From assembly GCA_964419835.1 (NCBI GenBank), contig CAYQPT010000001.1:10367-67897 (forward strand): a DNA stretch of 57,531 bases, given 5' to 3'. Source of the stretch: an uncultured Candidatus Saccharibacteria bacterium. GTDB lineage: Bacteria > Patescibacteriota > UBA1384 > XYA2-FULL-43-10 > 1-14-0-10-43-13. The notes under the pieces are model-generated. The model did not search any database. It saw nothing but the letters and a program-made list of their open reading frames with translations, and was not told where the DNA came from. The translations under genes were made by a program, and so were the position numbers. Below are positions 9,654 to 30,926 of the stretch, in pieces. The first letter of the stretch is position 1; the number at the start of each line of letters is the position of its first letter.

Positions 9654-9662
9654 GATACTGAA

Positions 9663-9959
9663 ATGAATGAAATTTTAGCAGATGAAGAGCATTATTTCCC
9701 AAAGACTATAAATGAGGCAATAGAGGCAATCATGTGCCATGATTTTTCGGAAAGAGATATTGAGATTATTGAGGAATCCAGCAAAAAACAAATCGACAAG
9801 ATACTTCCCGATTTTGAGGACACAATAAGGATATACTGCGGATTTGACTCAGGCAATCAGAAATTATTGGAAGTATGTGGCGATAAAAATATGGATCCGC
9901 ATGATGCCTCACGGGTAATAATGCTTGCCCTTTGGGACTACTTCCATTTCACTCAATAA
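9663..9959 (+). CDS. hypothetical small protein (98 aa)
   Basis: ORF in a tight co-directional array. C-terminal motif DPHDASRVIMLALW. No family assigned. Confidence 0.4.
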   Translation: MNEILADEEHYFPKTINEAIEAIMCHDFSERDIEIIEESSKKQIDKILPDFEDTIRIYCGFDSGNQKLLEVCGDKNMDPHDASRVIMLALWDYFHFTQ

Positions 9960-9974
9960 TTATGAGAATTTCAC

Positions 9975-10379: not shown

Positions 10380-10382
10380 ATA

Positions 10383-14131: not shown

Positions 14132-15587
14132 TTACATGCTGTTTTTGCGACATCCTGCTTGGTTGTGGTTGAAAAAGCACGACAAAGACAAACTGCCACC
14201 TATTGATGAAGACACTCAGGCAATCTTTGATGCTGGTTTTTTGTTTGAATCATATGCAGAGCAGTTGTTCCCAGATGCGGTCAAGCTTGGATTCGATGGC
14301 TACCGAGAGTATTTGAGCCTGACTCGAAGAACTAAAGAAGCGATTGAGAGCGGAGTAAAGACTATTATTCAGGCACGATTCGAGGCTGGCGAAATTACCT
14401 GCATTTGCGATGTGATCGTTAAGGCAGCCGATAATACTTTTGATCTTTACGAAATCAAGTCAAGCACAAGCGCAAAGCCGGAACATGAGCCCGATTTAGC
14501 ATTTCAAAAAGAGGTTTTAGAACAGTGCGGTTACAACATTAGCAAAGTCTTTGTCGTTCATTGTGATAGTGATTATGTTAGAAACGGCGAAGTCAAAGCA
14601 GGTGAGCTTTGCAAAATATGCGAAGTTACCGATCGAGTCAATGAGCTGAAAGATTTTACAAAGGAAAATATTAAAAAAGCGCTCGAATGTGTAAGCAAAA
14701 AAGAATGCCCCGATATTTCGCCTTGCCACACCAAGCTTGGTGCTTTTGGGGACTGGCTTTCGATCTACAAGACACTGGCGAATGTTGATGAATATAGCAT
14801 TTACCATTTATGTTCACCTGGCGCTCAAAAGATTGGTGATCTTGAGTCACTAGGGATTAAGCGGCTTTGCGACATTCCAGACAATTTTCATCTAAACGAA
14901 AAACAACTGCGACAAGTAACTGCAACCAAAACGGGAGAGGTCTTAGCCGACAAGAGCCGAATCAAAGAATTTTTAGAAAAGCTCGAGTTTCCACTATATT
15001 TTCTTGATTACGAAACTCTTTCAAGTGTAGTGCCATATTTCGATGGACTTGGGCCATATAAGCAATTGCCGTTCCAATATTCTTTGCATGTTCTGGAGTC
15101 TCCTGAGAGCGAATTGAAGCATTTCGAATATTTACATGATGCTAACTCTAATCCAGTCCGACCGCTTACCGAAGCACTGAAATCACAGATAGGAACAGAG
15201 GGTACTGTGCTAGTCTGGTTTGAAGGCTTTGAGAAAACCTGCAACGAACTGATGGGTAAAATATTACCGGAGTATGAGGAATTTTACAAAAGAGTAAACG
15301 ATCGAGTTGTTGATTTGATGCGCCCTTTTGCAGATGGCGCTTATGTTCATAAAGATTTTTTCGGCAGTGCCTCAATCAAAAAAGTTTTGCCTGTATTAAT
15401 TCCAGAGTTATCATACAAAGACCTTGATATACATGCTGGTGGAGCCGCACAAAGATTGTGGATGGAGGCGGTGCTTGACTGTAAACGAGAAGCCGAAAAA
15501 GATAAAATTTTAAAGGATCTTCTCAAATATTGTGAACTTGATACTCTCGCCATGGTTCGGATTTATCAATTTTTAACTGACCTATAA
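14112..15587 (+). CDS. DUF2779 protein (RecB/Cas4-like PD-(D/E)XK N-domain plus RNase-H-like exonuclease C-domain)
   Basis: N-terminal ISKSDYMLFLRHPAWLWL signature, DLYEIKSST nuclease motif, YFLDYETL ... PFQYSLH exonuclease-like motif. Confidence 0.6.
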   Translation: MQISKSDYMLFLRHPAWLWLKKHDKDKLPPIDEDTQAIFDAGFLFESYAEQLFPDAVKLGFDGYREYLSLTRRTKEAIESGVKTIIQARFEAGEITCICDVIVKAADNTFDLYEIKSSTSAKPEHEPDLAFQKEVLEQCGYNISKVFVVHCDSDYVRNGEVKAGELCKICEVTDRVNELKDFTKENIKKALECVSKKECPDISPCHTKLGAFGDWLSIYKTLANVDEYSIYHLCSPGAQKIGDLESLGIKRLCDIPDNFHLNEKQLRQVTATKTGEVLADKSRIKEFLEKLEFPLYFLDYETLSSVVPYFDGLGPYKQLPFQYSLHVLESPESELKHFEYLHDANSNPVRPLTEALKSQIGTEGTVLVWFEGFEKTCNELMGKILPEYEEFYKRVNDRVVDLMRPFADGAYVHKDFFGSASIKKVLPVLIPELSYKDLDIHAGGAAQRLWMEAVLDCKREAEKDKILKDLLKYCELDTLAMVRIYQFLTDL

Positions 15588-15588
15588 G

Positions 15589-16581
15589 ATGAAAGCACTA
15601 TTAGCATTTATCGTTCTACTTATCGGACTTCTCATATTTACCTATTATTGGGTGAATACTACTCGTTTCAATGGGATGGTACCGGCAACATTCTTTAGGA
15701 GTAAACCGAGGAGAGTGTCTTTGGTTGTGTTTTTCGTAATCTGTACTCTCTATTCTGCCTATTTATTTCAAATTGCCGATTGGGGCTATGGCTTTACGAT
15801 TATGCTGATCTTTTTTTACATTCTAGGCTATTTTATTATTGCTGAAGGAATCAGACAGAACACCATGATTGAAAAGGTTTTTAGATCATATCACGCTTTT
15901 TCTTTACCCGATGTTGGATTCAAGAAAAAAGACCTTTTGCCAAATACTGCCGGATTTGCGATGGAGTGGATGGGTTATTCAAAACAGACGGTTGAAAAGG
16001 CAATGGAATATATAAAAGGCGAAATCAAAGATAACAAGATTAACGATGTTTTCGATATACCCTCGGCGATTGCGACTTACTTTAACGCTTTGGTGAATTC
16101 GAAAGATCCTAAAAATTTCGAGAAAGTAGTATTTACAAGAGAACGACTAGAGCGTATTTATAACCGAATTTATAAGGGCATAGATGACCGGAGCAAATTA
16201 AGGAAAATGTATGACGACTTTGTCATAGTCGTTGACCGAAATTTTAAAAGTTTCTCCCTTTTCTCTTTGCAGCAGCCCAATTTCGCTAACGAAGAAGTTG
16301 AGCTTAGAGAGCACGCGATGTACACAAAAGGAAAGAATAAAGAGCCAGAACACAAGATACTCGCAATGTTTACAGGAGTGCCTGGTAATTTAGCCTACAA
16401 ATTCGGCTGGGTTAATTCTCTTGAGGAATACATGATCTTGGCCAATCTGGAATTTGCAAGACGAAATCCTGGTCATTATTTGTCAAAGAAGATTCGGAAA
16501 AAGTATAAATTTACCGATCAAGAAATCCAAGATTTTGCCGAGGGGGCAGAACTACCCAAGGGCTTGAGATTCGACCTATAA
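15589..16581 (+). CDS. hypothetical membrane protein (about 3 N-terminal TM helices)
   Basis: Hydrophobic N-terminus. Starts 1 nt after the upstream stop. Confidence 0.5.
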   Translation: MKALLAFIVLLIGLLIFTYYWVNTTRFNGMVPATFFRSKPRRVSLVVFFVICTLYSAYLFQIADWGYGFTIMLIFFYILGYFIIAEGIRQNTMIEKVFRSYHAFSLPDVGFKKKDLLPNTAGFAMEWMGYSKQTVEKAMEYIKGEIKDNKINDVFDIPSAIATYFNALVNSKDPKNFEKVVFTRERLERIYNRIYKGIDDRSKLRKMYDDFVIVVDRNFKSFSLFSLQQPNFANEEVELREHAMYTKGKNKEPEHKILAMFTGVPGNLAYKFGWVNSLEEYMILANLEFARRNPGHYLSKKIRKKYKFTDQEIQDFAEGAELPKGLRFDL

Positions 16582-16596
16582 GCCCTCTATCAATTA

Positions 16597-17691
16597 ATGT
16601 TTTATAGTATTAGTTATTTCCATATATATTTGGTATACTATAGCCAAATGAAAGACCAAAAAAGGAAAATTAAAGAACATATTGAGGTTGTCAAATCTTG
16701 GAGATATTATCGCTATCTTTTTTGGTGTTCGATCCTATTTATAATGTTTTTGTTTTCTGCTGGTTCAATCCTTGCCTACAATAAAATTTTTGTACCAAAA
16801 GTAAGTACCGAGGAGCAAAAGGATGATTTAAAAAAGCAAGAAGAGTTGAGCATTGAACCGATTGCACAAGAAAGCCAAACTCCGACTCCAACAGATGTAA
16901 TCGATTCTCAGACAAATGCAAATTCTAATCCGACCATTGCAAAGAATAGTTCTGTATCTTCAACAACTACTCCGAGCGAACCAATTAAACCATCGGCTTG
17001 CTTCAATTATTCTAGCTCAGATGTATTCGGTGCAGACGTCTATTACTTTGGAAGACCAATTGTTCTGGATGCTGGTTGCACCCAAGACGCTAAAGAATAT
17101 TTATGGTATTTCAATGACAAACTGTTATCTGGTCTAGGACAAAAAATGACAACGAGCTTTAAAGCTTGGACTAGAGTTAATGAATCCGATGTAGTTGAAG
17201 GAAGAATCAAACTCATTGTAAATGGCAATAACGGACTTACAAATAGCACAGAAAGAGTTATTAAGCTAAAAACTGTTCCAAGAACAGAGATTTGCTTTAC
17301 TCCGACTGGGGCGCAAAAACACAATATAGCCTTTAATGAGAATGTAGTTTTCTCTATGTCTTGCACCAAAGAAAATTCTGAGAACCCGGTCACAAAGTAT
17401 TATTGGGAATTCAGGGATGGTACATCTGATAATCCAATAAGATTAGAGGGGAAAGAAGTATCTCACGCTTTTACTAAATTTGCTAATAGTTTCTCGGGGG
17501 GCAACTCGGGCGATGACTTCTATAAAGGTTTCTCCGTATCTGCTGGAATAGAATTGAAAATGGGAGGCGGTGGAAACGCTACGGATTTTTATTTTCCCAA
17601 ACAAAGCGATCCCGTGGTGCTGAACCTGCTGAATTACATGAGAAACAACCACAAGGATATTGATCAAGCGATTGTAGACCTCAATCTTTAA
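16597..17691 (+). CDS. membrane-anchored secreted protein with S/T-rich linker and two PKD-like repeats
   Basis: TM segment, then repeats ending in YLWYFND and YYWEFRDGT (PKD-like WxFGDG pattern). Start may be the ATG at 16648 (MKDQKRK). Confidence 0.55.
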   Translation: MFYSISYFHIYLVYYSQMKDQKRKIKEHIEVVKSWRYYRYLFWCSILFIMFLFSAGSILAYNKIFVPKVSTEEQKDDLKKQEELSIEPIAQESQTPTPTDVIDSQTNANSNPTIAKNSSVSSTTTPSEPIKPSACFNYSSSDVFGADVYYFGRPIVLDAGCTQDAKEYLWYFNDKLLSGLGQKMTTSFKAWTRVNESDVVEGRIKLIVNGNNGLTNSTERVIKLKTVPRTEICFTPTGAQKHNIAFNENVVFSMSCTKENSENPVTKYYWEFRDGTSDNPIRLEGKEVSHAFTKFANSFSGGNSGDDFYKGFSVSAGIELKMGGGGNATDFYFPKQSDPVVLNLLNYMRNNHKDIDQAIVDLNL

Positions 17692-17797
17692 TTTTAATAA
17701 TCTCCAAGCTTGTCAGTAATATAAATACGAACTCCATATTAATTCGATTTTTGTCCTTTTTCTTTTGATCTTTTTACTGTTAAGATAAGTATTGCTC

Positions 17798-17968
17798 ATG
17801 AAATACAAAGTTTGCGATAAATGCGGTGAAATTGTAACAAAAACCGGCTTCATTTCGAGTTCGCCAATAACGAAAGAATCCGGCCGTTTTGCTAAATGTA
17901 ATAATAGAGCGTGTGCTAAATATTTTCCTCAACATCAATACGAAAAGTTGAGCGATAAAGAGTTTTAA
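17798..17968 (+). CDS. possible 56-aa zinc-ribbon protein (below the ORF-track cutoff)
   Basis: ATG..TAA ORF: MKYKVCDKCGEIV...KCNNRACAKYF, with a CxxC plus CxxxC pair. Fills an otherwise empty 270-bp gap. Confidence 0.3.
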   Translation: MKYKVCDKCGEIVTKTGFISSSPITKESGRFAKCNNRACAKYFPQHQYEKLSDKEF

Positions 17969-18651
17969 ATATTATCCTTTTCTTGATATAGCCGCTCCCA
18001 TTCCACATTGGGAACATTAAGACGACACATTGCCTCATCAATATTCTTGCGCAAGTTATCGTGTAATTTGATGGCATTTACTCTTTTGCCTCTTTTTCTT
18101 TTATCGGCATAGACTAAAAGATCGTCAATACATTTTTCTAACGACGCCTGAAAGCCCTCCTCGTACCACAAATTCCTAGTCAAATACTGCACAACCTGTC
18201 CAAGCTGATCTTTTGTTAGTTCAACGCCATAATGCAGTTGAAATAGCTTCCCAGTTTTTTCTTCAACAACTTGATTATAAGGAATACGAGTATGTGTCAC
18301 CATAATTGCCCGCATTTCCTTTGAAATTCTCTCTTTCTCTTTATAGGCAGTCATGACGAGTAAGCTTCTAGCTTCATCGTACGCTTCAGAAACTGGAATA
18401 TCTATTCCCCTAACCTCTTTAAGCAATTCTTTAAATTCTATTGCCATTTCTTCGGTAATGCGCCTAGGCGAGGCTGGCCCTTTGTCGTGAGTGATCCACC
18501 AATCAAGCTCTTTGATAAAATTCACCATTTTTACCAGTTCGGGCTTTGGTATGATAATATCATACTTATCTTTCATCATCTTCTTGGTTTGCTCAAGCTC
18601 TTCATCTGTTGGTTCAGAAATTTCAGGAGTATTTTTCTTGTTTTTAATCAT
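17965..18651 (-). CDS. hypothetical protein (228 aa), downstream partner of the PLD-like gene
   Basis: ORF 20 nt downstream of 18672-19385 on the same strand. No motif recognised. Confidence 0.5.
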   Translation of the reverse strand: MIKNKKNTPEISEPTDEELEQTKKMMKDKYDIIIPKPELVKMVNFIKELDWWITHDKGPASPRRITEEMAIEFKELLKEVRGIDIPVSEAYDEARSLLVMTAYKEKERISKEMRAIMVTHTRIPYNQVVEEKTGKLFQLHYGVELTKDQLGQVVQYLTRNLWYEEGFQASLEKCIDDLLVYADKRKRGKRVNAIKLHDNLRKNIDEAMCRLNVPNVEWERLYQEKDNI

Positions 18652-18671
18652 AATATTTCCTAGGGCGATTT

Positions 18672-19385
18672 TTATTTATTTAATATATCTATGCTCTTTA
18701 GTAATAATATCATAACTCGTGAAGCAGCCAATAGCCACCAAATTATCAACGGAATTGAAAGACCTAGTAAAAATACACGCAATTTCTGCTTAGAATTCCA
18801 CTGTGATTTATCAATCAAGTTATGACACAGTTTTTCGTATTTCAGCTTATAATCTTCTGCAAGCTTCTTACCCAATCCCAGATATTTGATGATTTCCAGT
18901 GCCGAGTCCTCGTATGGAATTCTTCTCATCATTTCCCTGCTTGTCCGTTGAGAAAGAATGTTTAGACTCCCTTCCCAGAGGATCTTGCGGTCAATTATCG
19001 CAACTTTCTCATGGATATGTCCTTCAAGATAAAAAATGCTCGCTCCGGCTTCCTCGTACTCTCGCAAGGCGCATGTAATTTCACCTCTCATCAGTAAATC
19101 GTGCTCCTCAAGCGGACGGGTAAAAATAAAGACATTGACGTTTCTTCTTTTGAGCTTTTCCATTGTTTTTTTAAAAAAATCTGACCTGAACTTAGATATG
19201 AATGGGCTGTATATGATTACTTCTTGTTTTGCTTCTAGCATATCTTTCACAAAGGCATGATAAAAGGTCTTTTCGTTGAATAATAGACTGGTTGGCGACT
19301 CATCTTCTTCCTCTAATTGCCCGGAATCGATTATTGCTTGCCTTCGTTTTAAATACGTTTTGAATGATGGTGTTTGTGCTAACAT
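18672..19385 (-). CDS. single-HKD phospholipase D/Nuc-family nuclease-like protein with C-terminal TM helix (paralogue of 44828-45568)
   Basis: Full HxK(x)4D(x)6GSxN signature HEKVAIIDRKILWEGSLN. C-terminal LLGLSIPLIIWWLLA segment. Confidence 0.7.
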   Translation of the reverse strand: MLAQTPSFKTYLKRRQAIIDSGQLEEEDESPTSLLFNEKTFYHAFVKDMLEAKQEVIIYSPFISKFRSDFFKKTMEKLKRRNVNVFIFTRPLEEHDLLMRGEITCALREYEEAGASIFYLEGHIHEKVAIIDRKILWEGSLNILSQRTSREMMRRIPYEDSALEIIKYLGLGKKLAEDYKLKYEKLCHNLIDKSQWNSKQKLRVFLLGLSIPLIIWWLLAASRVMILLLKSIDILNK

Positions 19386-19438
19386 ATTTCTCCCTAAGAT
19401 ATGGTTATTTATCGATAATTTTGCTATGCTGTTCGTGT

Positions 19439-19651
19439 ATGATTAATGACGAAAATAAATTGAAAAAGCTCGGCAATATGTTCAAAGAAGCCAGAGAAAA
19501 AGCGCATCTGAAACAATCGGATGTTGCTACTGCTGCTGGTGTGAACGCCAATTATTACGCTCAGATCGAACGTGGTGAAATTAATCTGTCGTACGACAAA
19601 TTGCAAAGCATAGCAAAAGCCCTCAATATCAAATCTATTGATGTTTCGTAG
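19439..19651 (+). CDS. XRE-family helix-turn-helix regulator (70 aa)
   Basis: LKQSDVATAAGVNANYYAQIERGE HTH_3 pattern. Divergent from the PLD gene. Start taken at the internal ATG (MINDENK) rather than the ORF-track start. Confidence 0.75.
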   Translation: MINDENKLKKLGNMFKEAREKAHLKQSDVATAAGVNANYYAQIERGEINLSYDKLQSIAKALNIKSIDVS

Positions 19652-21266
19652 AGTCATTGTTCTCCTCTTTTTGAGTTCTATATATTTCTCTAAGTACCGG
19701 CTCCCAACCAAGAATAGTGTCGAAAAAAGTGTTCCATAATTTTTCGACACATGTCCACCACATTGTATTTAACTTTTCGGAAGCCGCCTCGCGCGGGCTG
19801 AAAGCCCGCGCTTCGGCTGGCAAATTGTAGAGTAAAGTATATTCTTTTGGGAAATTTATTGAGAGCTTTTTGTTGAGGATTTGGCGGTTCGACCCGATGG
19901 TTTTTAGAAAATTTTTCATTGCATGAAAATTTTCTTGTAACACGAGATTTCCTGCTTGGTTGGCCTCAATAATCCAGTTTTTCAAGAGTTCGACCCAATG
20001 ATTTCCTTTTCGCTCAAAATCTGCTAATTTTTCTTGCAAATCTTTCTTTTGCTCAACTAACTTGTTTTTCTTTTCATGGTATTCGGAGAGTTCAAATACT
20101 TCTTCAAGGTAGGCGTCAGTTAGACGATCTATTTTTGTATTTAAGGACTCAACTTTATCTTTCAGATTTTGAGCGAAAATTCCTGACGAGTTGTTTTGTT
20201 CATTTTCCCATTCTTCAACTTTAGCTAAATACTTTTCTTTCCACTCGTCAGGTAAAGAAACTTTTTGACAATAGGTTTTTATTTGCTCTTTCAATTCTTG
20301 TTCTGGCAAAAACTTATGTTGGTCACACTTTTTTACTTTGCTCTTTTTAGTACAGCGATAATACACATATTCTCGTCCGCTTGGCTTTCGTTTCTTTTCG
20401 GCGGTCATCATATATCCGCAATCTCCACAGCGAGCAAAGCCGTAAAAAAGTGGATTCTTTTTGATTAAGTTTTTGCGGGGCTTGCCATTGTCATGCAGAG
20501 CAGCTTGAATTTTGTCAAAAAGTTTCTTGGAAATCATTGACTTGTGAGAACCTTGAACCAATTCACCTTTGTAGTAAAACATTCCGTAATAGAAAGGATT
20601 TTGCAATATATGTCCGATAGTTGAAAGGTGAATTGGTTTATTGTCCTTGCCAACCAAGCCAAGAGAAAACATTTTGCTTTGTATTTTAGATAAGGTGAAA
20701 TTTCCGGTTGCAAAACTCACAAGGCATTCTTTCATTTTGGCGAAAGTCCTTTTATCTGGCTCAATAGTTCGCAATCTCGGTTCGTTAATGTATCCGAGAG
20801 GTGCCTTGTGAGGAAATTCACCTCTTCTTATCTTTTGCCTATTTCCCCGCAAAATGTTTTCTCTTAAATTGTCGGTGTAATATTTGGCTTGCCCAAAGGC
20901 AACGCTTAACATAAATTTACCTTGGGGAGTAGTATCAAACCAGAAGGTCGGAAATTTTAGCGAAGTAATTTTGCCAGTATCAACAAAATAAATTACTTTA
21001 CCGCCATCTATTGAGTTTCTAGCTAACCGATCAGGGTTCCATGCTAAAATTCCCGAAGCGTTGCCTTTTTCTATTTCAGAAAGCATTTGATTAAATATTG
21101 GTCGGCCCGGCTCCTTCGCCGTTCGACTTTCGAAAAATTCTTTAATCACAAAAAGTGAGTTTTGTTTGGCATAATCTCGGAGTTCTTGGAGCTGGGCCTC
21201 AATAGACAAAATTTGTCGTTCTTCCTCCTCTGACGACTTCCTACAATAGATGAAATATTTGATCAT
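19635..21266 (-). CDS. large serine recombinase (resolvase/invertase N-domain, recombinase domain, zinc ribbon, coiled coil)
   Basis: YCRKSSEEEERQILSIEAQ catalytic-Ser region, NPDRLARN, CGDCGY...YYRC zinc ribbon. GGAGGG RBS upstream. The 3' end lies inside IR1. Confidence 0.85.
   Translation of the reverse strand: MIKYFIYCRKSSEEEERQILSIEAQLQELRDYAKQNSLFVIKEFFESRTAKEPGRPIFNQMLSEIEKGNASGILAWNPDRLARNSIDGGKVIYFVDTGKITSLKFPTFWFDTTPQGKFMLSVAFGQAKYYTDNLRENILRGNRQKIRRGEFPHKAPLGYINEPRLRTIEPDKRTFAKMKECLVSFATGNFTLSKIQSKMFSLGLVGKDNKPIHLSTIGHILQNPFYYGMFYYKGELVQGSHKSMISKKLFDKIQAALHDNGKPRKNLIKKNPLFYGFARCGDCGYMMTAEKKRKPSGREYVYYRCTKKSKVKKCDQHKFLPEQELKEQIKTYCQKVSLPDEWKEKYLAKVEEWENEQNNSSGIFAQNLKDKVESLNTKIDRLTDAYLEEVFELSEYHEKKNKLVEQKKDLQEKLADFERKGNHWVELLKNWIIEANQAGNLVLQENFHAMKNFLKTIGSNRQILNKKLSINFPKEYTLLYNLPAEARAFSPREAASEKLNTMWWTCVEKLWNTFFDTILGWEPVLREIYRTQKEENNDSTKHQ
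19755..19890. repeat. IR1 left arm (136 bp)
   Basis: Exact reverse complement of 21482-21617 by hand alignment. Contains the hairpin GCGCGGGCT-GAA-AGCCCGCGC. Lies within the recombinase 3' coding region. Confidence 0.95.
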
Positions 21267-21481
21267 TTTCCCTCCTTTGAGAACAAATTTTTCTATCTAT
21301 ATTATACCAAACAGTTACCGAACAACAAATGCTTTCTGAAATTTCCGCCTTTGGCGGAATTACACCGACAATTTAAATCTCTTGTTGCGTTCGCAAAGCG
21401 AACAAAAAACCATCGGGTCAAAATATGAAATAGTATATACTAGCTCATCATACTATTTCATACTTTCTGTGTTTTACACAG

Positions 21482-21617
21482 GAACCGCCAAATCCTCAAC
21501 AAAAAGCTCTCAATAAATTTCCCAAAAGAATATACTTTACTCTACAATTTGCCAGCCGAAGCGCGGGCTTTCAGCCCGCGCGAGGCGGCTTCCGAAAAGT
21601 TAAATACAATGTGGTGG
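21482..21617. repeat. IR1 right arm (136 bp)
   Basis: Exact reverse complement of 19755-19890. Overlaps the IR2 left arm by 6 bp (TGGTGG). Confidence 0.95.
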
Positions 21618-21805
21618 TGTTTGCTGGAAGAAGCTCGGAAAAATTTTGAGCAAAATATTGAATAATATTTAAATGTTGCCTCACTCGCGGAGTTTACCCC
21701 GTACCCGATGCGGGGCTCGCTCGGCTGTTTTGTGCGGTCGCTGGAGGGGTTTGGGGAGGAAAGCGACCGCACATTTGGGATAGAAAATGCAGGACAAAAA
21801 GGAGG
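21612..21805. repeat. IR2 left arm (194 bp)
   Basis: Reverse complement of 24239-24432 with one mismatch (near 21794). Contains an 11-bp stem (21731-21741 / 21763-21773) with a G-rich loop. Confidence 0.95.
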
Positions 21806-21867
21806 GTATCGATCATTAGCCTGTTTTGTACCGATTAGTAATAATAATTTCTCGACTGAATTGGAAC

Positions 21868-21897
21868 TAAAAAAACTTCCGGTTGGAAGTTTTTTTA
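21868..21897. terminator. bidirectional intrinsic terminator-like hairpin
   Basis: A-run, then AAACTTCC-GGTT-GGAAGTTT, then T-run. Lies just downstream of the minus-strand gene ending at 21925. Confidence 0.7.
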
Positions 21898-21924
21898 GTT
21901 AGCGCTTTTAGTCACTAGATTGAA

Positions 21925-22296
21925 TTACGGTTTAAACGGCGCTTCTACGATTCCCTTAGCCTCTTCGATGCCTTTTTTGATTGCCTCACCGGTTGCTTCT
22001 TCTCCGCCTTTCACAACCTTGCCTAGAGCTTTCTCGGCTTTTGTCGCTACTTCACCGATAGCTTCCTCTGTGTTTTTCCCAGATTCTTCCAATGCCTTGA
22101 CCGCACCGACATAAACATCTTTCACTCCTTCAGTTATATCAATAACGCCCTCTTTTCCAAGTTCTACTATCGCTCCAAAAATTTCTCCAACATCTTCCGT
22201 TCCTTCTTTCAAGATACTAGTTACGGTCGAAGCCAAAGACTCCGTAACCTCTCCCGTTCCTTCGATTGTGTTTTTGAGCAATTCTTTAATTGCCAT
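21925..22296 (-). CDS. hypothetical E/G/K-rich repetitive small protein (123 aa)
   Basis: Start moved to MAIKELLK, which has an AAGGAGAAG RBS. Low-complexity helical repeats. Confidence 0.55.
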   Translation of the reverse strand: MAIKELLKNTIEGTGEVTESLASTVTSILKEGTEDVGEIFGAIVELGKEGVIDITEGVKDVYVGAVKALEESGKNTEEAIGEVATKAEKALGKVVKGGEEATGEAIKKGIEEAKGIVEAPFKP

Positions 22297-22384
22297 GAAC
22301 TTCTCCTTTCTTTTACTTATAAATTTTGTTAACCACACAATAATTATAGCTAAAATCAATTAAAATTGATTTTTGTTGCTTGTG

Positions 22385-23329
22385 CTAATCTCCGACATAA
22401 TTAAAATATTCGCCAGCTCCAATTTCCGCGAAGACAAACAGAACGTAGAAGACAAGCAGTAGTAGGGCGTCTTTTTTATTTAACGGCTTTTCTGTTCTCA
22501 TTAAGTAAAAAAGAAAAACCGCTGCCACAACCATAAAGAAACCGGTTATGTAAACAATTCTTGGATTAAATGAAAAGGGGCTGATTAATGCCACAATGCC
22601 AACAACAATGGCGGCGTCCGTAAGAACATTTCCTAAAATATCGCCGATCGCTAAGCCCTCATTATCTTCTCGAACTGCTCTGATAGACAAAAAGAGTTCC
22701 GGCAGAGTGGTACCCAAAGCAATAAAGAACATACCCGTAAAGATTGGATTGATATCGAGTTTGCGGGTCGCAGCGATGGCATTCTGAACGGTAAAATCGG
22801 ACGCAAGTAGTAAAACCGCCAAACTAATCAAAAAGAGGACGAAATATTTTACAGAAAATTGGCGGCGGCCCAGAACGCTTTTTGTCGGTTCCCGATTAAG
22901 CATCGAGCGGAAGAAGTAAACGCCGGCAATTATTAGAATAATTCCATCAATTCGCGAATAATTTCCGTTTAGTCCGAGCAGGATTGGTATGGAAAGTATT
23001 AGTATATAAAGCAAATCATGTTTGACAATTTTACCGCTTGCTTTGAAATTGTGTCCTCCAAAAATAATAACGAGTCCGAAAATAAGGGTTAAATCGGCGA
23101 CATTGGAGCCAAAGAGCGTACCTAACCCCAAGGAGGGTACGCCGTCTATTGCTGAAGTAACGCTGATAAAGGTTTCCGGAAGAGCGCAAATTACCGCAAT
23201 AAGCAGAAATCCGATCATATAACCGGAAATTTTTAATCCTTGAGCCAGCTTATACGCATATCGGACGGCGTAACCGGCGCTTTTGGTAACAACTACAAGT
23301 GAGATTACCGACAATACTATATTATACAA
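22385..23329 (-). CDS. CaCA-family sodium/calcium exchanger membrane protein (YrbG-like)
   Basis: Two alpha-repeat regions (GTLFGSNVADLTLIFG and GDILGNVLTDAAIVVG). About 10 TM helices. Confidence 0.7.
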   Translation of the reverse strand: MYNIVLSVISLVVVTKSAGYAVRYAYKLAQGLKISGYMIGFLLIAVICALPETFISVTSAIDGVPSLGLGTLFGSNVADLTLIFGLVIIFGGHNFKASGKIVKHDLLYILILSIPILLGLNGNYSRIDGIILIIAGVYFFRSMLNREPTKSVLGRRQFSVKYFVLFLISLAVLLLASDFTVQNAIAATRKLDINPIFTGMFFIALGTTLPELFLSIRAVREDNEGLAIGDILGNVLTDAAIVVGIVALISPFSFNPRIVYITGFFMVVAAVFLFYLMRTEKPLNKKDALLLLVFYVLFVFAEIGAGEYFNYVGD

Positions 23330-23352
23330 AACAACCTCCTATTCTTTTCTGC

Positions 23353-24015
23353 CTATTTAAAAGTGTCTATTTTTAAAGGCGCTCTATCCAAAGCATCCCG
23401 AACTAAAAACTCGAATATATTCTTCTTGTTTTTTCTTATAGCGGTTAAAATAAATGCGCTTATGACACCGAAAAAAGATATGATTACAAAAAGAACATTA
23501 AACCCCAACCTATCGGCGATAACTGCGCCAATAGCGGCACTTGAAGCCGTCGCTATTCCTACTCCCACGTCTTCAAGCGACCATTCAAATCCAATGATTT
23601 TCTTGTCGATATGATTAGTAAAAATTATACGCCAGGCGGGAACGGCCATAGAGTTAGCAAGACCACTGATGCCTTGTAAAAGATAAATATGCCACGGCTC
23701 CGATGATATTGTGTAAAACAATGGAATGACCGCCATCAAAAAAGTCCCCGCTATCATAAAGGAATATTCATCCAATTCGCCTTTTATTTTATCTAATAAC
23801 CGACTAATCGGTATCGCCATTATAACTCTAGTAATCCAATAGCATGCCGTAGCATAGCCGATAACTTCAATTCTGTTATCGATGTTTTTTAAAATGAAAA
23901 CAGCAAATATTGGCGATAACAAACCGACAGCAAAAAACAAGAAGAAATCGGAGGCAACCAATAGGCGTATGGTTTTATTTACAAATTTGTTATGGTTGTT
24001 GTTTGTTTGAATCAT
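23353..24015 (-). CDS. half-size MFS-like membrane protein (about 6 TM)
   Basis: Hydrophobic profile only. 220 aa is half of a canonical MFS protein. Confidence 0.45.
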   Translation of the reverse strand: MIQTNNNHNKFVNKTIRLLVASDFFLFFAVGLLSPIFAVFILKNIDNRIEVIGYATACYWITRVIMAIPISRLLDKIKGELDEYSFMIAGTFLMAVIPLFYTISSEPWHIYLLQGISGLANSMAVPAWRIIFTNHIDKKIIGFEWSLEDVGVGIATASSAAIGAVIADRLGFNVLFVIISFFGVISAFILTAIRKNKKNIFEFLVRDALDRAPLKIDTFK

Positions 24016-24030
24016 ATTGGCAGGCTACTT

Positions 24031-24064
24031 TTAAAAAACAACCGGTTCTTTTTGACCGGTTGTT
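24031..24064 (-). promoter_or_regulatory. terminator/attenuator-like hairpin directly upstream of the MFS-like gene
   Basis: 10-bp stem AACAACCGGT/ACCGGTTGTT, followed on the minus strand by TTTTTT. Only about 16 nt from the start codon at 24015. Confidence 0.35.
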
Positions 24065-24238
24065 TATTTGCTCTAATTGCGTTTATACTGCAAAACAACC
24101 GATCAAGCGATGGTTGTTACTGCGATCTTTTGTGTGATATGCCCTAGTACCATATTTATAGTGTATCAAAATTTAATATTAAAGCAAGACAATTGATTGG
24201 TGCAATTCAGTATCAATCTAATATTCTTCTCGTTCTAT

Positions 24239-24432
24239 CCTCCTTTTTGCCCTGCATTTTCTATCCCAAATGTGCGGTCGCTTTCCTCCCCAAACCCCTC
24301 CAGCGACCGCACAAAACAGCCGAGCGAGCCCCGCATCGGGTACGGGGTAAACTCCGCGAGTGAGGCAACATTTAAATATTATTCAATATTTTGCTCAAAA
24401 TTTTTCCGAGCTTCTTCCAGCAAACACCACCA
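24239..24432. repeat. IR2 right arm (194 bp)
   Basis: Reverse complement of 21612-21805 with one mismatch. Confidence 0.95.
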
Positions 24433-24476
24433 TATAAAAATAGAGCAACTTCATGTTGGTCTATTTTTATATGAAG

Positions 24477-24655
24477 AAGAGTGGGAGTTGCACCGAGAAA
24501 GGGGTCGGGAAAACTGGGTTTCCCGCTAGAGGAAGATACTAGAAACCGTGGGTTTCTAGAGCGAGCCCGCTATAGCATAGCGGAGTGCGAGTAGTTCTAA
24601 TATCCGCTTGGGTCCACCAATAAAACCCCACTCTTTGAAGTAGGGATTTTATTTA
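24477..24655 (+). ncRNA. candidate structured ncRNA of unknown class
   Basis: Closing stem AAGAGTGGG/CCCACTCTT encloses three perfect hairpins: CGGGAAA..TTTCCCG, CTAGAAACC-GTG-GGTTTCTAG and CCGCTAT-AGC-ATAGCGG. It ends in a terminator-like stem plus T-rich run. No ORF of coding quality. More GC-rich than its surroundings. Confidence 0.3.
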
Positions 24656-24693
24656 TGTTTCAGCATTATATTTGCAATCAGCCCTTATATATT

Positions 24694-27438
24694 TTATCTC
24701 CCCACCACTCCCTTTACCCTATCCCACAAGTTTCCAAAGAAACGGAAGAACTTGTTGGTTTGTTTTTGAGTTGTAGTAGTCTTTGTAACTGTAGAAGTGC
24801 TAGGGATTGCTGTCTCTTGTGTATTGGTATTGGCATTCTGGCTTAAAGTATCAATAGAGCCAGATGTATTGGTACTGGAACTGGTGTCAATGCTGGAAGA
24901 TGCTGATCCGGATATCTCTGCGGGACTGCCTGGCACAGGAGGCAAGGATGATTCAGATCCGGTGCTTGCAGTGTTGCCGGTATTGGTATTTGATGCCTCT
25001 GATGCAGGTGTAGTAGCAGGTGTTTCTGTGACGGCTTCTGTGGTTGTGCTTTCAGTAGGAGTGAGTTGTGACGCACTACTGGATTGAGTAACACCCTCTG
25101 TAGGAGTTGCATTAGCATTTACTATTACTTTGTATGAAAGAGTAATGGTATCTCCTGTTACTGTTGCTGGTACCATAGTTGAGAAGTTCCAGGTTGGAAT
25201 GTTGTTGGCTAGTGTATATGTATCACCACCTGCAGCAGTATGATCATCTATGTCTGTCAGTTGTGTTGCAGTGCCAGCACCTATCTTTATGGTGGCAGAA
25301 TTTTCTTTGTAGCTGGTTTGAGACAGAATGGGATCGGTTACTATTAGATTATGTATTGCATTGGGAGATACATTCTTCATTGTTAGAGTGACAGTAACAG
25401 TATCACCGGGAGCAACGGTTGGATTGTCGACTGATTTTGTGAGGGAGAGTTCTTTGTCTACCGTTGGATCGTAGAAAGTGGCGACATCAACAAGGTTCAA
25501 GTTATCTGTTAGGTAGATGGTTCCATTGCGAACGGCTACTTGATGAGTGCTGTACCCAAGCGCTGAAAGAAAAGTAGGTGCCGCAGTCATTTCGTTGATC
25601 TTAAAAACATTAACACCTGTTCTGGGGCTATTCCCATTGTTGCCTGCAACAAACACATAGCCACCGTAAACTTGGACTCCTGCTGCAAGGCCGCTGGTAG
25701 GCGCTGTCCTAATCAAGGATGGCTGAGAAGGTGCTGAAACATTAACCTGACTCAGACCGGAATGGGCATTTGCAACCCAAGCCGTACTTCCGGCCAAATC
25801 CACATCGATACCACCGCCTGTGCCGTTATACAGTGGAAGATCTACACGGCCAAGATAAGCTGGATGATCCGGATCAGATATGTTTAGTGTAACAAGTCCA
25901 TTCGTTCCGTCAGCTACAGCCGCAAGTGCGCCCTCAACATCGACGGAGCATGCTGTTCCGTCTGTATCATACACACTGCGCTGAATCGGATTAAGCGGGT
26001 CGGACACATCAACAATAACTATCCCTGCTGCCCCGCAAGCAACATATGCGTGGCTACCAACAACATTGAGATGATTGCAAGTGCCCGGAAGATTGATGGT
26101 TTTTACTGCGGCTGGCAGGATTGGGTCAATGACTTTTAGTATCCCTGTTGATCCATCGGTTATGAAAGCGTACTCTTTCCCCCCGATTGCCGAGGCGGCC
26201 ACTGAATAGGGCGTAACCCCTACAATACTAGACACATATTGTGGCAACTGGCCGCGGGTGTTTGAAATAGAATAGATGCTTAGGCGACCACTTGAAGCAG
26301 TATATAGATAGTTGTCTGTCACAGCAACATCGTACACTCCATAAATTTGAGGAAAGCCGTTGTTAGAATCCTTCGGAAACTGATCCAGTGAGACATGCCC
26401 AAGCCACGCGGGGTTCATATTGGTTGTGCCGGCCGGGTTGTTGTAAGAAACCGGAGGTGTTGAGTATTCTGTGTAAGCGCCGTTCCTGAGTCGTCTTGCC
26501 CGGTATTGGCAGTTCTCATTACTGTAGCAGGAGTCTGTGTATGAAGTGGTGGCTTGGGAAAGACTGGCAATCTCTTTCCAACCAAAGCTGCTGACTTGTT
26601 TCTCCAATGAGGTAGTATGAGCCATTGAGGTTGGATTTGTAATAGTTATGGTATTGGTGGCAGTTGTGGTGCCAGAGTTTGCGGTAGAGATAGAGAGCGT
26701 GGGAACATCTAATGTGTAGGTGACCGTATTGGAATCCACTTTGACCGATGAAGGAGAAATGGTAACGACAACAACAGCAAAGGTGTATGATTGGTCGCAG
26801 GTTAAAGGAGATGAATTGACAGTGGTAATATCTTTTTGTCTTGTGCCTACTCCGGCGCCGACATAGTTACCAGTATCGGAATATGTGCCGTCACTGTTTT
26901 TGAGAAAGATTTTGGTTTGCATATCAGAAGGATGATTATCTGTCCATGAGACAGTAATAGCACAAGTTGAAGCTGAGGCCGTGGCGACTACATTTGTAGG
27001 GATCTGAGAGGAGAAGAATCCTGAGTTGGTTTGGGCGGAGTATTCTCCTGCGCTATTCTTGGCCTTTACTCCAAAGTAGTAAGTGGAAGTGGAGACAAGA
27101 GATCCTATTTGATAAGAAGTGGTAGTCGCAGAAACATTGGTGACTTCAACATATGCGCCACTGTCTTGTCTTTTATAAATGTAAAATTTATCCACACCAG
27201 TGGTATTGGCTGTCCAAGTGACAAGAGCAGTAGTGGCATCAACTCTGGATGCGTTGACACCGGTGGGAGCAGCCGGAGCAGCAGCAAAAGCAGTCTGTGG
27301 CAAGAAGCTAAAAAGCAGAGCTATTGTAAGAAGCTTGGCAGTTAGCTTGGTTGTGGATAATTTGAATAGCTTACATGGTTTTAATGTAAACCGTGTTGCT
27401 AGTTTCATCCTGATCGTTGATATTACTTTTGATTTCAT
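24694..27438 (-). CDS. secreted surface protein: FN3 repeats, LVIVD-repeat beta-propeller, DUF11-like domain, S/T-rich tail
   Basis: Signal peptide ...PQTAFA. FN3-like WT...Y repeats. GIVIVDVSDPLNP LVIVD motifs. LSLTKSVD...GDTVTVTLTMKN. RBS CCGGAGGG. Confidence 0.8.
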   Translation of the reverse strand: MKSKVISTIRMKLATRFTLKPCKLFKLSTTKLTAKLLTIALLFSFLPQTAFAAAPAAPTGVNASRVDATTALVTWTANTTGVDKFYIYKRQDSGAYVEVTNVSATTTSYQIGSLVSTSTYYFGVKAKNSAGEYSAQTNSGFFSSQIPTNVVATASASTCAITVSWTDNHPSDMQTKIFLKNSDGTYSDTGNYVGAGVGTRQKDITTVNSSPLTCDQSYTFAVVVVTISPSSVKVDSNTVTYTLDVPTLSISTANSGTTTATNTITITNPTSMAHTTSLEKQVSSFGWKEIASLSQATTSYTDSCYSNENCQYRARRLRNGAYTEYSTPPVSYNNPAGTTNMNPAWLGHVSLDQFPKDSNNGFPQIYGVYDVAVTDNYLYTASSGRLSIYSISNTRGQLPQYVSSIVGVTPYSVAASAIGGKEYAFITDGSTGILKVIDPILPAAVKTINLPGTCNHLNVVGSHAYVACGAAGIVIVDVSDPLNPIQRSVYDTDGTACSVDVEGALAAVADGTNGLVTLNISDPDHPAYLGRVDLPLYNGTGGGIDVDLAGSTAWVANAHSGLSQVNVSAPSQPSLIRTAPTSGLAAGVQVYGGYVFVAGNNGNSPRTGVNVFKINEMTAAPTFLSALGYSTHQVAVRNGTIYLTDNLNLVDVATFYDPTVDKELSLTKSVDNPTVAPGDTVTVTLTMKNVSPNAIHNLIVTDPILSQTSYKENSATIKIGAGTATQLTDIDDHTAAGGDTYTLANNIPTWNFSTMVPATVTGDTITLSYKVIVNANATPTEGVTQSSSASQLTPTESTTTEAVTETPATTPASEASNTNTGNTASTGSESSLPPVPGSPAEISGSASSSIDTSSSTNTSGSIDTLSQNANTNTQETAIPSTSTVTKTTTTQKQTNKFFRFFGNLWDRVKGVVGR
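25441..26409. repeat. 969-bp block 100% identical to 29161-30129 (direct repeat, offset 3720)
   Basis: Line-by-line comparison is identical. Flanks are homologous but clearly diverged. Confidence 0.95.
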
Positions 27439-27474: not shown

Positions 27475-28431
27475 TTAATTTTCCAAGATCTTAAACCCTT
27501 CACCAATAGCATCGCAAAGAAAATCTTCCAATAAAGACTGATCGTTTTCAGTTTGAGCTTTATTTAAATATCGTAAATAAAGAATTTTTTTATCTTGTTT
27601 AATTACTGCCGGTGGCAAATTTTTTCGCAAAACCATTGCTCCTATAATGAGCCGTCCAATTCGGCCATTGCCATCAACAAAGGGGTGAATTTTTTCGAAT
27701 CTGGCATGAATCCCTGCCACATGGGCTACTGTATCAGCACGTTTTTTATTGATATCGAAAACTAACTTTTCCATTAGTTCCGGAACTTTTAAATAATTGG
27801 CAGTTGGCACATTGGCACCAACAATTCTAACTCCATACTTACGATAGTTTCCAGCATCAATATTAATACTGTTTAAAAGAATGCTGTGTAATTTCAAAAT
27901 TAACTCTTCGCTGATTATTTTGGATTTTTTAAGATAATTAAAAAGATAAACCAAAGCTGTCTGATGATTTTTTGCTTCTAATTGTTCAACCATGGGCTTA
28001 TTGGCAATAGAGGCCCCTTCAAAAAGAATAGCGGCCGTCTCTCCCTCGGACAAAGAACTGCCTTCAATATTATTGGTATGATAAGTTAATTCAAGTAAAA
28101 ATTGATCAAATACCTTTTTATTATTTATGATTGCAGTAATAACATCACCATATTTTTTTGCCTTAGCAAAAATAATTTGCTTTTTAACAACTAATTCGCT
28201 CGAAGGAATTTTCTTTGTACCGCTAATGGTTAAGTATAAATCGTTGATTGCGGATAAAATTTTTTGTCGAGGAATAGATTTGTTATTTATAATACTATTT
28301 AAAGCGACAAAAGAAATGCCGATTTTAGCAGCTATTTCCGTTTGAGTCATATTGGATATTTTTTGAATTATTTTTAATTTATCGCTTGTATCCATATTTT
28401 TAATTTTATATAACTTTATAAAGTTTGTCAA
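27475..28431 (-). CDS. Fic-family protein with N-terminal HTH
   Basis: Fic motif HPFVDGNGRIGR. N-terminal MTQTEIAAKIGISFVALNSI HTH. Confidence 0.85.
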   Translation of the reverse strand: MTNFIKLYKIKNMDTSDKLKIIQKISNMTQTEIAAKIGISFVALNSIINNKSIPRQKILSAINDLYLTISGTKKIPSSELVVKKQIIFAKAKKYGDVITAIINNKKVFDQFLLELTYHTNNIEGSSLSEGETAAILFEGASIANKPMVEQLEAKNHQTALVYLFNYLKKSKIISEELILKLHSILLNSINIDAGNYRKYGVRIVGANVPTANYLKVPELMEKLVFDINKKRADTVAHVAGIHARFEKIHPFVDGNGRIGRLIIGAMVLRKNLPPAVIKQDKKILYLRYLNKAQTENDQSLLEDFLCDAIGEGFKILEN

Positions 28432-30837: not shown

Positions 30838-30926
30838 TGTGCCCTCCGGCTTTGACAAGATAATAGTTAAATTGCCAAATTGCTAAATTGTTGGATAGCT
30901 GGATAGTTAAATTATTGAATAGTCTG

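Follow-up and report, generated by a model that had tools for sequence, protein, structure and literature searches.

A probable integrative element of Patescibacteria with its attachment site inside a large serine recombinase gene and an inverted spare copy

Large serine recombinase (LSR) elements, such as those of phiC31, Bxb1 and A118, TnpX and TndX, and SCCmec CcrAB, recombine attP with attB at a very short common core, yielding attL and attR. In canonical LSR biology, one attP suffices. Serine chemistry also drives the Hin, Gin and Cin inversion systems, whose small (~190 aa) invertases carry a C-terminal HTH and act on 26–34-bp sites, two per segment, with a Fis enhancer; these systems are immobile and lack attP/attB logic. 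The 2-micron plasmid (FLP/FRT) and pSM19035 (beta/six) are replicons, circles with two long inverted repeats, two unique segments, a recombination site within the repeat and two isomers. [quoted passage not shown] Mobile elements of CPR/Patescibacteria are poorly known. Sites within an integrase gene occur in the SSV-type suicidal tyrosine integrases (SSV1, pTN3, pT26-2), for which gene integrity has been proposed as a directionality control, and a 2021 review described self-disrupting recombinases as exclusive to archaea (PMC8371274).

Here we analyse a locus at 19755–24432 of a 57,531-nucleotide stretch of DNA (the window). Its recombinase has the Resolvase, Recombinase and zinc ribbon set of known LSR elements and would follow the same attachment logic. 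Unlike in those elements, the putative attP lies in the recombinase's own coding end, so that integration would rewrite the C-terminus, a second, inverted attP is constant, and the family targets the CCA end of a tRNA-Ala or tmRNA gene. As in SSV-type systems, the recombination site lies in the enzyme's own gene and would be altered on integration; however, those are archaeal tyrosine recombinases whose genes are cut into two large pieces, whereas here a serine recombinase of Patescibacteria/CPR assemblies would have just its last 15–21 codons swapped, with an inverted spare 3′ end retained in the element. With Hin-type systems the locus shares a recombinase gene within its own invertible segment (as for hin), crossover sites at the outer repeat ends and a shared inner half-site, but the enzyme is a 543-aa LSR, and there are three sites with 124–450-bp repeats (136- and 194-bp arms in the window). 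The 2-micron and pSM19035 geometry is matched without a conserved replicon in copies that are usually chromosomal, and the enzyme is a serine recombinase whereas FLP is a tyrosine recombinase. The family resembles tRNA and tmRNA islands in 3′-end insertion and in small accessory or defence cargo, but here the overlap comprises the CCA-proximal bases only, and the window copy adjoins no tRNA.

Abutting inverted repeats in the window

Direct sequence comparison bore out the repeat geometry that a sequence-only reading of this DNA had claimed. Positions 19755–19890 are the exact reverse complement of 21482–21617 (IR1, 136/136), and 21612–21805 match the reverse complement of 24239–24432 at 193/194 positions (IR2), the sole mismatch being A versus G at 21794. 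The two pairs overlap by the 6 bp TGGTGG (21612–21617), and on the outside both end in CCACCA (19755–19760 and 24427–24432). A repeat search recovered both pairs at slightly greater length, one of 200 nt (99%) and one of 166 nt (92%), with a runner-up of 37 nt at 70% within 18–26.5 kb, and whole-window self-BLAST gave no other long inverted repeat except a diverged inverted PLD-gene paralogue (72%, 360 bp). The exactness of IR1 and IR2 and the lack of any comparable repeat in the window exclude chance.

The gene content of the two segments, from open reading frames and Pfam, is also as previously claimed. Segment 1 carries the LSR gene alone (19635–21266, − strand), 543 aa as assembled, with Resolvase (PF00239, E 1.3e-19), Recombinase (PF07508) and Zn_ribbon_recom (PF13408) domains; an invertase-type C-terminal HTH is absent by Pfam. 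The nearest solved chains by sequence are the catalytic domains of conjugative-transposon recombinases and TnpX. A poor AlphaFold2 model (mean pLDDT 60.6) of the homologue P0010 contains long helices at 340–387 and 393–420, where a coiled coil is expected. Segment 2 (21806–24238, − strand) carries the cargo, comprising a 144-aa E/G/K-rich protein (21925–22359), a CaCA exchanger with a Na_Ca_ex domain (22385–23329) and a 220-aa six-helix MFS protein (23353–24015).

The core TGGTGG corresponds to codons Trp503–Trp504 of the LSR, placing the site inside the recombinase's own 3′ end. At site A (core 19755–19760, − strand), the p1 arm (IR1 left arm, 19761–19890, − strand) encodes LSR residues ~460–502 and holds a GC-rich hairpin (19791–19811); arm and core both lie within the coding sequence. 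Codons 1–504 are conserved in the family, and codons 505–543 form a foreign 39-codon tail from the outer flank x (19635–19754, − strand), a B′-type half-site with a hairpin at 19717–19750, making A an attR-type p1-core-x junction. The region upstream of the LSR, still in segment 1 (21267–21481, − strand), contains hairpins and an extended −10-like TGGTATAAT (reverse complement of 21301–21309), read by eye and conserved in a relative (L165); a promoter scan of this region gave nothing above chance.

Site B with both arms spans 21482–21805. Its p1 arm (IR1 right arm, 21482–21611, + strand) is an untranslated inverted copy of the LSR 3′ end, and its core (21612–21617, + strand), common to IR1 and IR2, is the centre of an intact inverted attP. 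The p2 arm (IR2 left arm, 21618–21805, + strand) holds native tail codons CLLEEARKNFEQNIE (21618–21662) and a stop (21663–21665), followed by 140 bp with a conserved stem–loop (21727–21767). Repeat comparison places the second p2 arm (IR2 right arm) at 24239–24426 (− strand), next to the core of site C (24427–24432, − strand), an attL-type y-core-p2 junction. Outer flank y (24433–24471), a B-type half-site, forms an AT-rich hairpin with a 12-bp stem, TATAAAAATAGA...TCTATTTTTATA, seen as a self-match in self-BLAST.

ARAGORN and Rfam searches found no tRNA, tmRNA or Rfam match at 19400–24800, and the window element sits at a non-tRNA site. Flank x is homologous to the flank in one relative (L001) and, over ~25 nt, in L165, and over 24 codons its conservation in the LSR frame is weakly coding-like (pS 0.67, pN 0.33). 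Positions 19783–14157 of the window recur at 100% identity in an independent Logan contig (L166, SRR8925824), which carries the p1-core-x junction at A. The predicted empty site of the window element reads ...CGACACATGT-CCACCA-TATAAAAATAG....

Attachment sites and recombinase tails among relatives

The same layout occurs at more than 100 loci from CPR (Patescibacteria) assemblies, and we found no description of it. The LSR has over 5,000 homologues at 61–94% identity, labelled Berkelbacteria, Woesebacteria and many Parcubacteria groups among others; divergence between loci reaches ~35–40% of amino acids. Alignment to the window LSR ends at residue ~505, at WW, and beyond WW the tails of 120 homologues differ. 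They fall into three classes: a native tail (WWC[LV]L..[AV]RT.FEQNP), antisense tRNA or tmRNA sequence, and quick stops. The native tail, WWCLLEEARKNFEQNIE followed by a stop, is intact in 54 of 56 distinct B copies of relatives, and pN/pS across it is 0.37 in the LSR frame, whereas the two remaining frames give 0.62 and 1.41. Judged from these substitution patterns, the native tail is shown to be under protein-level selection.

Among the 124 loci with a complete LSR 3′ end, ARAGORN placed an antisense tRNA or tmRNA ending exactly at the WW codons in 102. The flank at A in relatives is the antisense 3′ CCA end of this gene, mostly tRNA-Ala (39/50 in the genome set) and less often another tRNA, with tmRNA at seven loci; the A-site tails are meaningless antisense-tRNA sequence that often stops at once. 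Insertion at a tRNA or tmRNA 3′ end holds for the family, in many lineages, and fails for the window copy. The sites compare as p1-core-p2 for B, p1-core-t(m)RNA for A in those 102 loci and y-core-p2 for C. By this comparison, B is shown to be the intact parental attP, with A an attR and C an attL hybrid. The half-site bookkeeping of the sequence-only reading was correct, but its view of the middle site as a hybrid of the outer two had the relation reversed, since B copies carry the native tail. In the half-site consensus, the p2 and tRNA halves share GGA at +9 to +11, and GAAC is offset by 5 bp (+20 to +23 in p2 versus +15 to +18 in tRNA). This shift fits the model of Rutherford and Van Duyne, which is said to invoke a half-site motif shift between attP and attB arms.

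An inverted B copy lies upstream of the LSR in at least 91 of the 101 related loci with enough upstream sequence, complete genomes included (L035, CP055308.1; L082, CP064994.1). IR1 in relatives measures 124, 133 or 136 bp, with a median arm identity of 99.2%. Against the refuting case of a fixed arrangement with decayed repeats in relatives, the arrangement is indeed shared, but the repeats, at 99–100% identity, have not decayed. At four loci (L013, L101, L109, L141) the B arm is only 71–84% identical to the LSR's own p1, so homology-driven flipping cannot be universal, and even there the tail frame in B is intact. Repeat search placed a far-end IR2 with a C site, 1.5–8 kb away, at 22 of 56 loci, and a motif search did so at 37 of 76.

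Cargo is unrelated across relatives and includes restriction-modification systems, OLD-family nucleases/ATPases and transporters. It contains no conserved replication gene (Replic_Relax occurs in one locus only), and no RDF candidate was recognised among annotated cargo ORFs, RDFs having no common signature. The LSR element family is almost absent from a viral contig collection.

Orientation and a proposed cycle of integration and inversion

By comparison of relatives, segments 1 and 2 (S1 and S2) are each shown to occur in both orientations. L018, whose cargo is homologous to that of the window (CaCA 46% and MFS 68% identical), has S2 in the opposite orientation with respect to the LSR, and S1 is flipped in L037 and L062, where tRNA-Ala in sense is followed by p1′ and then by an LSR pointing away. 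The LSR faces the t(m)RNA in ~66 loci versus two flipped, so flipping is rare, counter-selected or transient. A single circle-type contig (L084), distinct from the window, has an 8,026-bp period and two inverted 448-bp p1-core-p2 (attP) repeats. Native-tail contigs (L167–L172) end before the upstream core and can be assigned to neither the circle nor the flipped state.

We infer that 19755–24432 is probably an integrated copy of a small LSR-driven integrative element with a self-located attP and an inverted spare; the earlier suggestion of an excisable element of 4.7 kb that contains an inverted junction comes near to this. The element attP would lie in the last LSR codons, with crossover in the second TGG of Trp-Trp, and a second complete attP would lie inverted ~250 bp upstream of the LSR start. 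The free form would be a circle divided by two inverted 260–450-bp p1-core-p2 copies into an LSR module (S1) and a cargo module (S2). Integration via the copy within the LSR gene would split that repeat, leaving the p1 half with the LSR at A (attR), the p2 half at the far end, C (attL), and B intact mid-element; a split repeat beside an intact B gives two inverted-repeat pairs abutting at the B core. The same event would swap the conserved native tail of 15–21 residues (the last 15 codons in the window) for target-encoded sequence.

Recombination across IR1, by the LSR or by homologous recombination, would then flip S1 and rebuild a full-length LSR co-directional with the tRNA, re-arming an enzyme truncated by integration, and the same arrangement would permit a cargo flip across IR2. 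We offer only tentatively, at somewhat below an even chance, the joint proposal that B serves as both spare 3′ end and attP and that both flips act in this way. Canonical LSRs are not known to act on attP paired with attR or attL. More doubtful is an RDF-free directionality in which integration would strip the conserved C-terminal helix, disarming an LSR that converges on the tRNA gene, until a rare inversion with the spare attP rebuilds the LSR and triggers excision. The CPR/Patescibacteria hosts of the element are naturally competent, and, by analogy with the folded attP of CTX phage, incoming ssDNA may, in a more exotic variant, fold so that the B strand pairs with the A and C arms into a duplex attP.

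Competing explanations and implications

The locus might instead be a dedicated double inverton, in which the LSR inverts segments 1 and 2 in the manner of Hin, Gin and Cin to phase-vary both its C-terminus and the cargo, mobility being secondary or lost. In agreement with this, each repeat pair has its cores outermost and A and B share an inner half-site, like hixL/hixR; the conservation of flank x would suit an alternative tail, and the flipping of both segments raised by the sequence-only reading stood up in L018, L037 and L062. Its Hin-like double-inverton label is less apt. The family occupies differing tRNA and tmRNA genes with unrelated cargo, a circle-type contig exists, orientation is unbalanced, tails at A are junk, and the enzyme is an LSR lacking the invertase-type HTH; such an inverton is improbable. 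We also hold it unlikely that B is functionless, an old inverted duplicate of the attP region that survives because continuing gene conversion homogenises it. Fixed arm boundaries and near-identical arms are as expected from conversion, and a single attP would be enough for a canonical LSR; but a neutral 330-bp inverted duplication beside a promoter should often vanish, whereas 90% or more of loci retain B, over lineages between which LSR identity has fallen to ~61–65%, and B keeps its tail frame where the p1 arms have diverged.

The L084 circle, with two long inverted repeats between two unique regions and a recombinase site in the repeat, would also match a 2-micron-like or pSM19035-like plasmid that uses repeats and recombinase for replication (copy-number amplification by fork reorientation) and integrates occasionally. 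A conserved replication gene is absent, the cargo is restriction-modification, defence or transporters, and the overwhelming majority of copies are chromosomal and adjoin a tRNA, making this very improbable. A foldback or chimeric join through the repeats is almost certainly not the explanation. IR2 foldbacks do exist in public data (a palindromic contig, L145, and a 2.1-kb perfect inverted repeat, L161), but the window is not one of them: its arms run into four different unique flanks, its two p2 copies differ by one base, its A junction was assembled independently, and the three-site layout recurs in more than 100 independent assemblies, including complete genomes.

The mobile element family to which the probable integrative element belongs is very widespread and highly conserved among CPR/Patescibacteria, and ferries restriction-modification and other defence genes and transporters. 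Contigs stop 5–213 bp past site B, and the element architecture accounts for the frequent breaks of CPR assemblies beside tRNA-Ala or tmRNA genes and for the palindromic chimeric contigs that arise there. Developers of genome-engineering tools may be interested in LSRs whose short, defined target, the G-U-C-C-A-C-C-A end of tRNA-Ala, is universally conserved. The notion of an integrase rewriting its own gene would extend beyond the tyrosine recombinases of archaea to a serine recombinase of bacteria. The spare copy suggests a new directionality control, which, if true, would make the system a bacterial serine counterpart of the archaeal suicidal integrases with a built-in reset.

Inverted repeats and recombination sites of the window copy

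The element at window 19755–24432 is organised by two abutting pairs of inverted repeats, IR1 and IR2. As proposed in the sequence-only reading, the IR1 arm at 19755–19890 is the perfect reverse complement of 21482–21617 (136/136), and direct comparison of the IR2 arms at 21612–21805 and 24239–24432 gives 193/194 matches, the sole difference being an A/G at 21794. The TGGTGG hexamer at 21612–21617 is indeed common to both pairs, and the outer arms end in CCACCA. Because the runner-up inverted repeat found near the element in a repeat search is only 37 nt long at 70% identity, and self-comparison of the whole window reveals none comparable elsewhere, a chance origin of IR1 and IR2 is excluded.

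The 543-aa open reading frame at 19635–21266 encodes the large serine recombinase (LSR), with Resolvase, Recombinase and Zn_ribbon_recom domains and its sense on the minus strand. The left arm of IR1 lies inside this gene, a point absent from the sequence-only reading, and the core TGGTGG encodes W503–W504. We define p1 as the 130 bp preceding the core at the middle site and p2 as the 188 bp following it. Site A is p1-core-x in the LSR sense, x being the outer flank, and reads on as TCVEKLWNTFFD... over 39 codons; the middle site B is p1-core-p2 on the plus strand and reads on as CLLEEARKNFEQNIE, followed by a stop; and site C is y-core-p2 in the LSR sense, y being the opposite flank. Segment S1 comprises the LSR and ~215 bp of upstream sequence, and segment S2 carries three genes, for an E/G/K-rich protein, a CaCA exchanger and a six-helix MFS protein. 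No second LSR and no further att-like copies occur within the window, and a scan for promoters and terminators gave no excess over shuffled expectation.

Homologues of the LSR number more than 5,000. The best 120 are 64–94% identical, and their alignments to the window protein mostly stop at residue ~505, the WW. Three kinds of tail follow: a conserved WWC[LV]L..[AV]RT.FEQNP.., the form that B encodes; sequences such as WWTRGDSNPRPP.C..GALP, in which a tRNA 3′ end is translated from its antisense strand; and a stop directly after WW. Since the conserved homologue tail is the one found at B, this site is the intact parental attP, spanning the end of the recombinase gene, with A and C the recombinant sites. 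The earlier interpretation was therefore right about the geometry and wrong about the roles, having taken the middle site for a hybrid of the two outer ones.

Further structure is found in and beside the arms. The p2 arms hold a stem–loop (21727–21767 and 24277–24317; GTGCGGTCGCT-(GGAGGGGTTTGGGGAGGAA)-AGCGACCGCAC) with a G-rich loop and no Rfam match, which is 100% kept in L001, a locus with a 94% identical LSR, in surroundings only ~80% identical. Within 21402–21481, the p1 arm at B is adjoined by a 64-nt palindrome-rich insert, also present in L165 (LSR 89% identical). Past this insert lie 15 nt, AAAAACCATCGGGTC, that come from the part of the LSR coding sequence just before p1, so the inverted 3′-end copy at B was once longer and has since been interrupted.

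A family of elements at tRNA and tmRNA genes

Among 164 related loci retrieved from species-representative genomes and metagenomes, ARAGORN places an antisense tRNA or tmRNA gene at site A in 102 of the 124 with a complete LSR 3′ end. The last bases of these genes (...GTCCACCA) are the reverse complement of the WW codons. The target is tRNA-Ala in 39/50 of the genome set, the others being Val, Ile, Ser, Glu or Gly, and tmRNA, whose acceptor end is tRNA-Ala-like, in seven loci. In the site consensus, both the p2 and the tRNA halves have GGA at +9 to +11, and GAAC lies at +20 to +23 in p2 versus +15 to +18 in the tRNA, where it belongs to the T-loop. For serine integrases, the Rutherford/Van Duyne structural model reportedly places a conserved motif 5 bp further outward in attP than in attB half-sites, and the 5-bp GAAC shift would be its counterpart here. 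As C sites frequently keep just the second TGG (...TTA TGG TGT...), the crossover falls within it, and the tRNA gene receives an encoded CCA from the element.

Of the 101 loci whose upstream sequence is long enough, at least 91 have the LSR 3′ end repeated in inverted orientation upstream of the gene; the copy stops exactly at the core, and the median distance between its core and the LSR start codon is 254 bp. The native tail is encoded past the B core in 54 of 56 distinct sequences and, with a pN/pS of 0.37 in the LSR frame versus 0.62 and 1.41 in the other frames, is under protein-level purifying selection. The IR1 arms have a median identity of 99.2%, and the LSRs differ by up to ~35–40% between loci; the arms evolve in concert. 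A second repeat pair begins at the B core and extends outward for 72–388 bp (most 137–369 bp, 98–100% identical). Its partner C-type site lies 1.5–8 kb away in 22/56 loci by repeat search and in 37/76 by motif, including the complete genomes CP055308.1 (L035, repeat search) and CP064994.1 (L082, motif). Members of this family have an attP that overlaps their own recombinase gene and a second attP, conserved in inverted orientation. Full-text literature searches found no description of the family or of its geometry, and the window copy is best read as an integrated representative of a CPR LSR-element family that is widespread and apparently undescribed.

IR1 arms are 124, 133 or 136 bp long across loci, classes that arise from a variable low-complexity stretch in p1. 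In the window this stretch forms a GC-rich hairpin (19791–19811 and 21561–21581; GCGCGGGCT-GAA/TTC-AGCCCGCGC, extendable to ~17 bp), which after integration is positioned ~35–55 nt downstream of the tRNA CCA end. It encodes the low-complexity peptide AEARAFSPREAAS, and because peptide sequence and length vary among homologues, the constraint may be on a DNA or RNA hairpin. In a separate locus, L055 (352–4211), a tRNA-Ala gene and the tRNA-Val gene next to it are each occupied by a family member; the two elements are placed back to back, and each LSR converges on the tRNA at which its element sits.

Proposed mechanism and possible role of the second attP

Integration through the LSR-internal attP would exchange the conserved tail for target sequence and leave the LSR converging on the tRNA gene. 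In an AlphaFold2 model of a native-tail homologue, the tail is the second half of helix 497–516, predicted at low confidence (pLDDT 60.6). The inverted attP kept in the element would carry a spare 3′ end, and recombination across IR1 would restore a full-length LSR, now co-directional with the tRNA. A 12,034-bp contig (L084, coverage 28) with a 3,955-bp terminal direct redundancy and a period of 8,026 bp has two inverted 448-bp p1-core-p2 copies between S1 and a 5.6-kb S2, which holds a DpnII-type restriction-modification system and a KAP NTPase; it contains no tRNA. Its layout is consistent with a circle that bears two attP sites in inverted orientation, and opening such a circle at the LSR-internal copy would yield exactly the geometry of the window, two pairs abutting at the intact copy.

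The suggestion that the segments flip is supported by comparison, both orientations of S1 and of S2 occurring among relatives. The LSR faces the tRNA or tmRNA gene in ~66 loci versus two flipped ones, L037 and L062, which run from tRNA-Ala in sense through CCACCA, p1′ and the promoter region to an LSR directed away from the tRNA. Such rarity would fit a flipped state that is transient and ‘armed’, or one that is selected against. Cargo is divergent from the LSR in 12 of 14 elements examined and co-directional in the window and L060; in L018, at tRNA-Ala with a 71% identical LSR, homologues of the window CaCA (46%) and MFS (68%) proteins are inverted relative to the LSR. The flips could be made by RecA or by the LSR itself, which would need attP × attR and attP × attL reactions, both non-canonical. 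In four loci (L013, L101, L109, L141), the B copy comes from another LSR lineage than the resident gene, which indicates that modules are exchanged between elements. Because its p1 arm there is only 71–84% identical to that of the resident gene and the tail ORF is nevertheless intact, it would seem to be a site-specific role, and not homology alone, for which B is retained.

S1 with its 136-bp arms was also considered as an insertion sequence with terminal inverted repeats, a reading rejected because inverted serine-recombinase sites lead to inversion, not excision, and B is invariably flanked by the native tail. A phage integrase was rejected since the family is essentially absent from viral contigs, with three partial matches; conserved replication or transfer genes are likewise lacking in the elements, whose cargo in relatives is mainly restriction-modification genes and OLD-family ATPase-nucleases. 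The window element works as serine-integrase integrative elements do, and the nearest solved chains by sequence are transposon-type LSR catalytic domains, including that of TnpX. With hin it shares a recombinase gene inside its own invertible segment, but tests for the invertase family place it outside; its circular form is similar in layout to the 2-micron plasmid, without a replicon. An att site inside the recombinase gene recalls the ‘suicidal’ tyrosine integrases of SSV type, described as exclusive to archaea (2021 review, PMC8371274). The present enzyme, in contrast, is a serine recombinase, the tail alone is exchanged and a spare copy is retained.

Flanks, chromosomal setting and assembly

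Neither ARAGORN nor Rfam (gathering threshold, and E ≤ 1 over 19400–24800) finds a tRNA, tmRNA or known RNA at the window sites, and a relaxed ARAGORN call inside p1 was dismissed as spurious. L003, with an LSR 94% identical to that of the window, sits at a tmRNA. Flank x could be a secondary site (pseudo-attB), an alternative tail or, in a tandem array, the P′ arm of an older element next to this one. The x-type tail (WWTCVEKLWNTFFD...) is homologous in L001 over ~100 nt, with a 1-nt frameshift there, and is held in common with L165 for ~25 nt. Between the window and L001, pS is 0.67 and pN 0.33 over 24 codons in the LSR frame, which weakly suggests coding constraint. The first 30 nt of x are 57% like p2, and the window has no second copy of x. 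Tandem arrays are absent from the 10-kb flanks of relatives, although L117, which stops 49 nt past its core, hints at the possibility.

The window copy lies in a chromosomal setting, as indicated by a defence island on the x side and by genes for LVIVD surface proteins, a Fic protein and RNase Y on the y side. The island (2148–19651) encodes GmrSD (2148–3908), an MmeI-family restriction-modification enzyme (3908–6541), a ResIII/DEAD helicase, a T5orf172/MUG113 protein, a DUF2779 protein, a PLD-family nuclease (18672–19385) and an XRE HTH protein (19364–19651). Most of its genes are on the strand opposite the LSR, the usual cargo orientation of the family, and it could be the cargo of an adjacent older element. 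The PLD-nuclease gene (18924–19283) has an inverted, diverged paralogue (72%) ~26 kb away at 44930–45289. Between site C and the 914-aa gene, a hairpin-rich 220-bp stretch (24472–24693) contains an extra CCACCA (24607–24612) and has no Rfam or ARAGORN match. The LVIVD/DUF11 surface proteins are two paralogues (24694–27438 and 28468–30858), 92% identical between 25115–26415 and 28850–30135, with a Fic/HTH gene (27475–28431) between them. Within S2, the six-helix ‘half-MFS’ (220–255 aa; 23353–24015, and 7829–8596 in L018, 68% identity) is conserved beside the CaCA exchanger in both elements, so that it is probably a short transporter subunit in its own right and not the product of a truncated gene.

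The window LSR and CaCA proteins have no exact match on record, and the sole hit to an exact look-up of the neighbouring PLD protein is a contig from SRR8925824 that is identical to the window. No metagenome relative above 79% identity was found, and the reconstructed attB (empty-site 38-mer TTTTTCGACACATGTCCACCATATAAAAATAGAGCAAC) is absent from 186/186 retrieved loci. The window A junction was recovered in a separate Logan contig; together with the same layout across the family, including complete genomes, this rules out a foldback artefact for the window. Two public contigs, L145 (1–7017) and L161, are palindromic (tRNA-Ile, tRNA-Ala, LSR, cargo, LSR, tRNA-Ala, tRNA-Ile) and are foldback assemblies arising through IR2 of this family. 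Many relatives’ contigs end 5–213 bp past the B core, as expected of an unresolved repeat. The architecture of these elements is a systematic source of breaks and chimeras beside tRNA-Ala and tmRNA genes in CPR assemblies.
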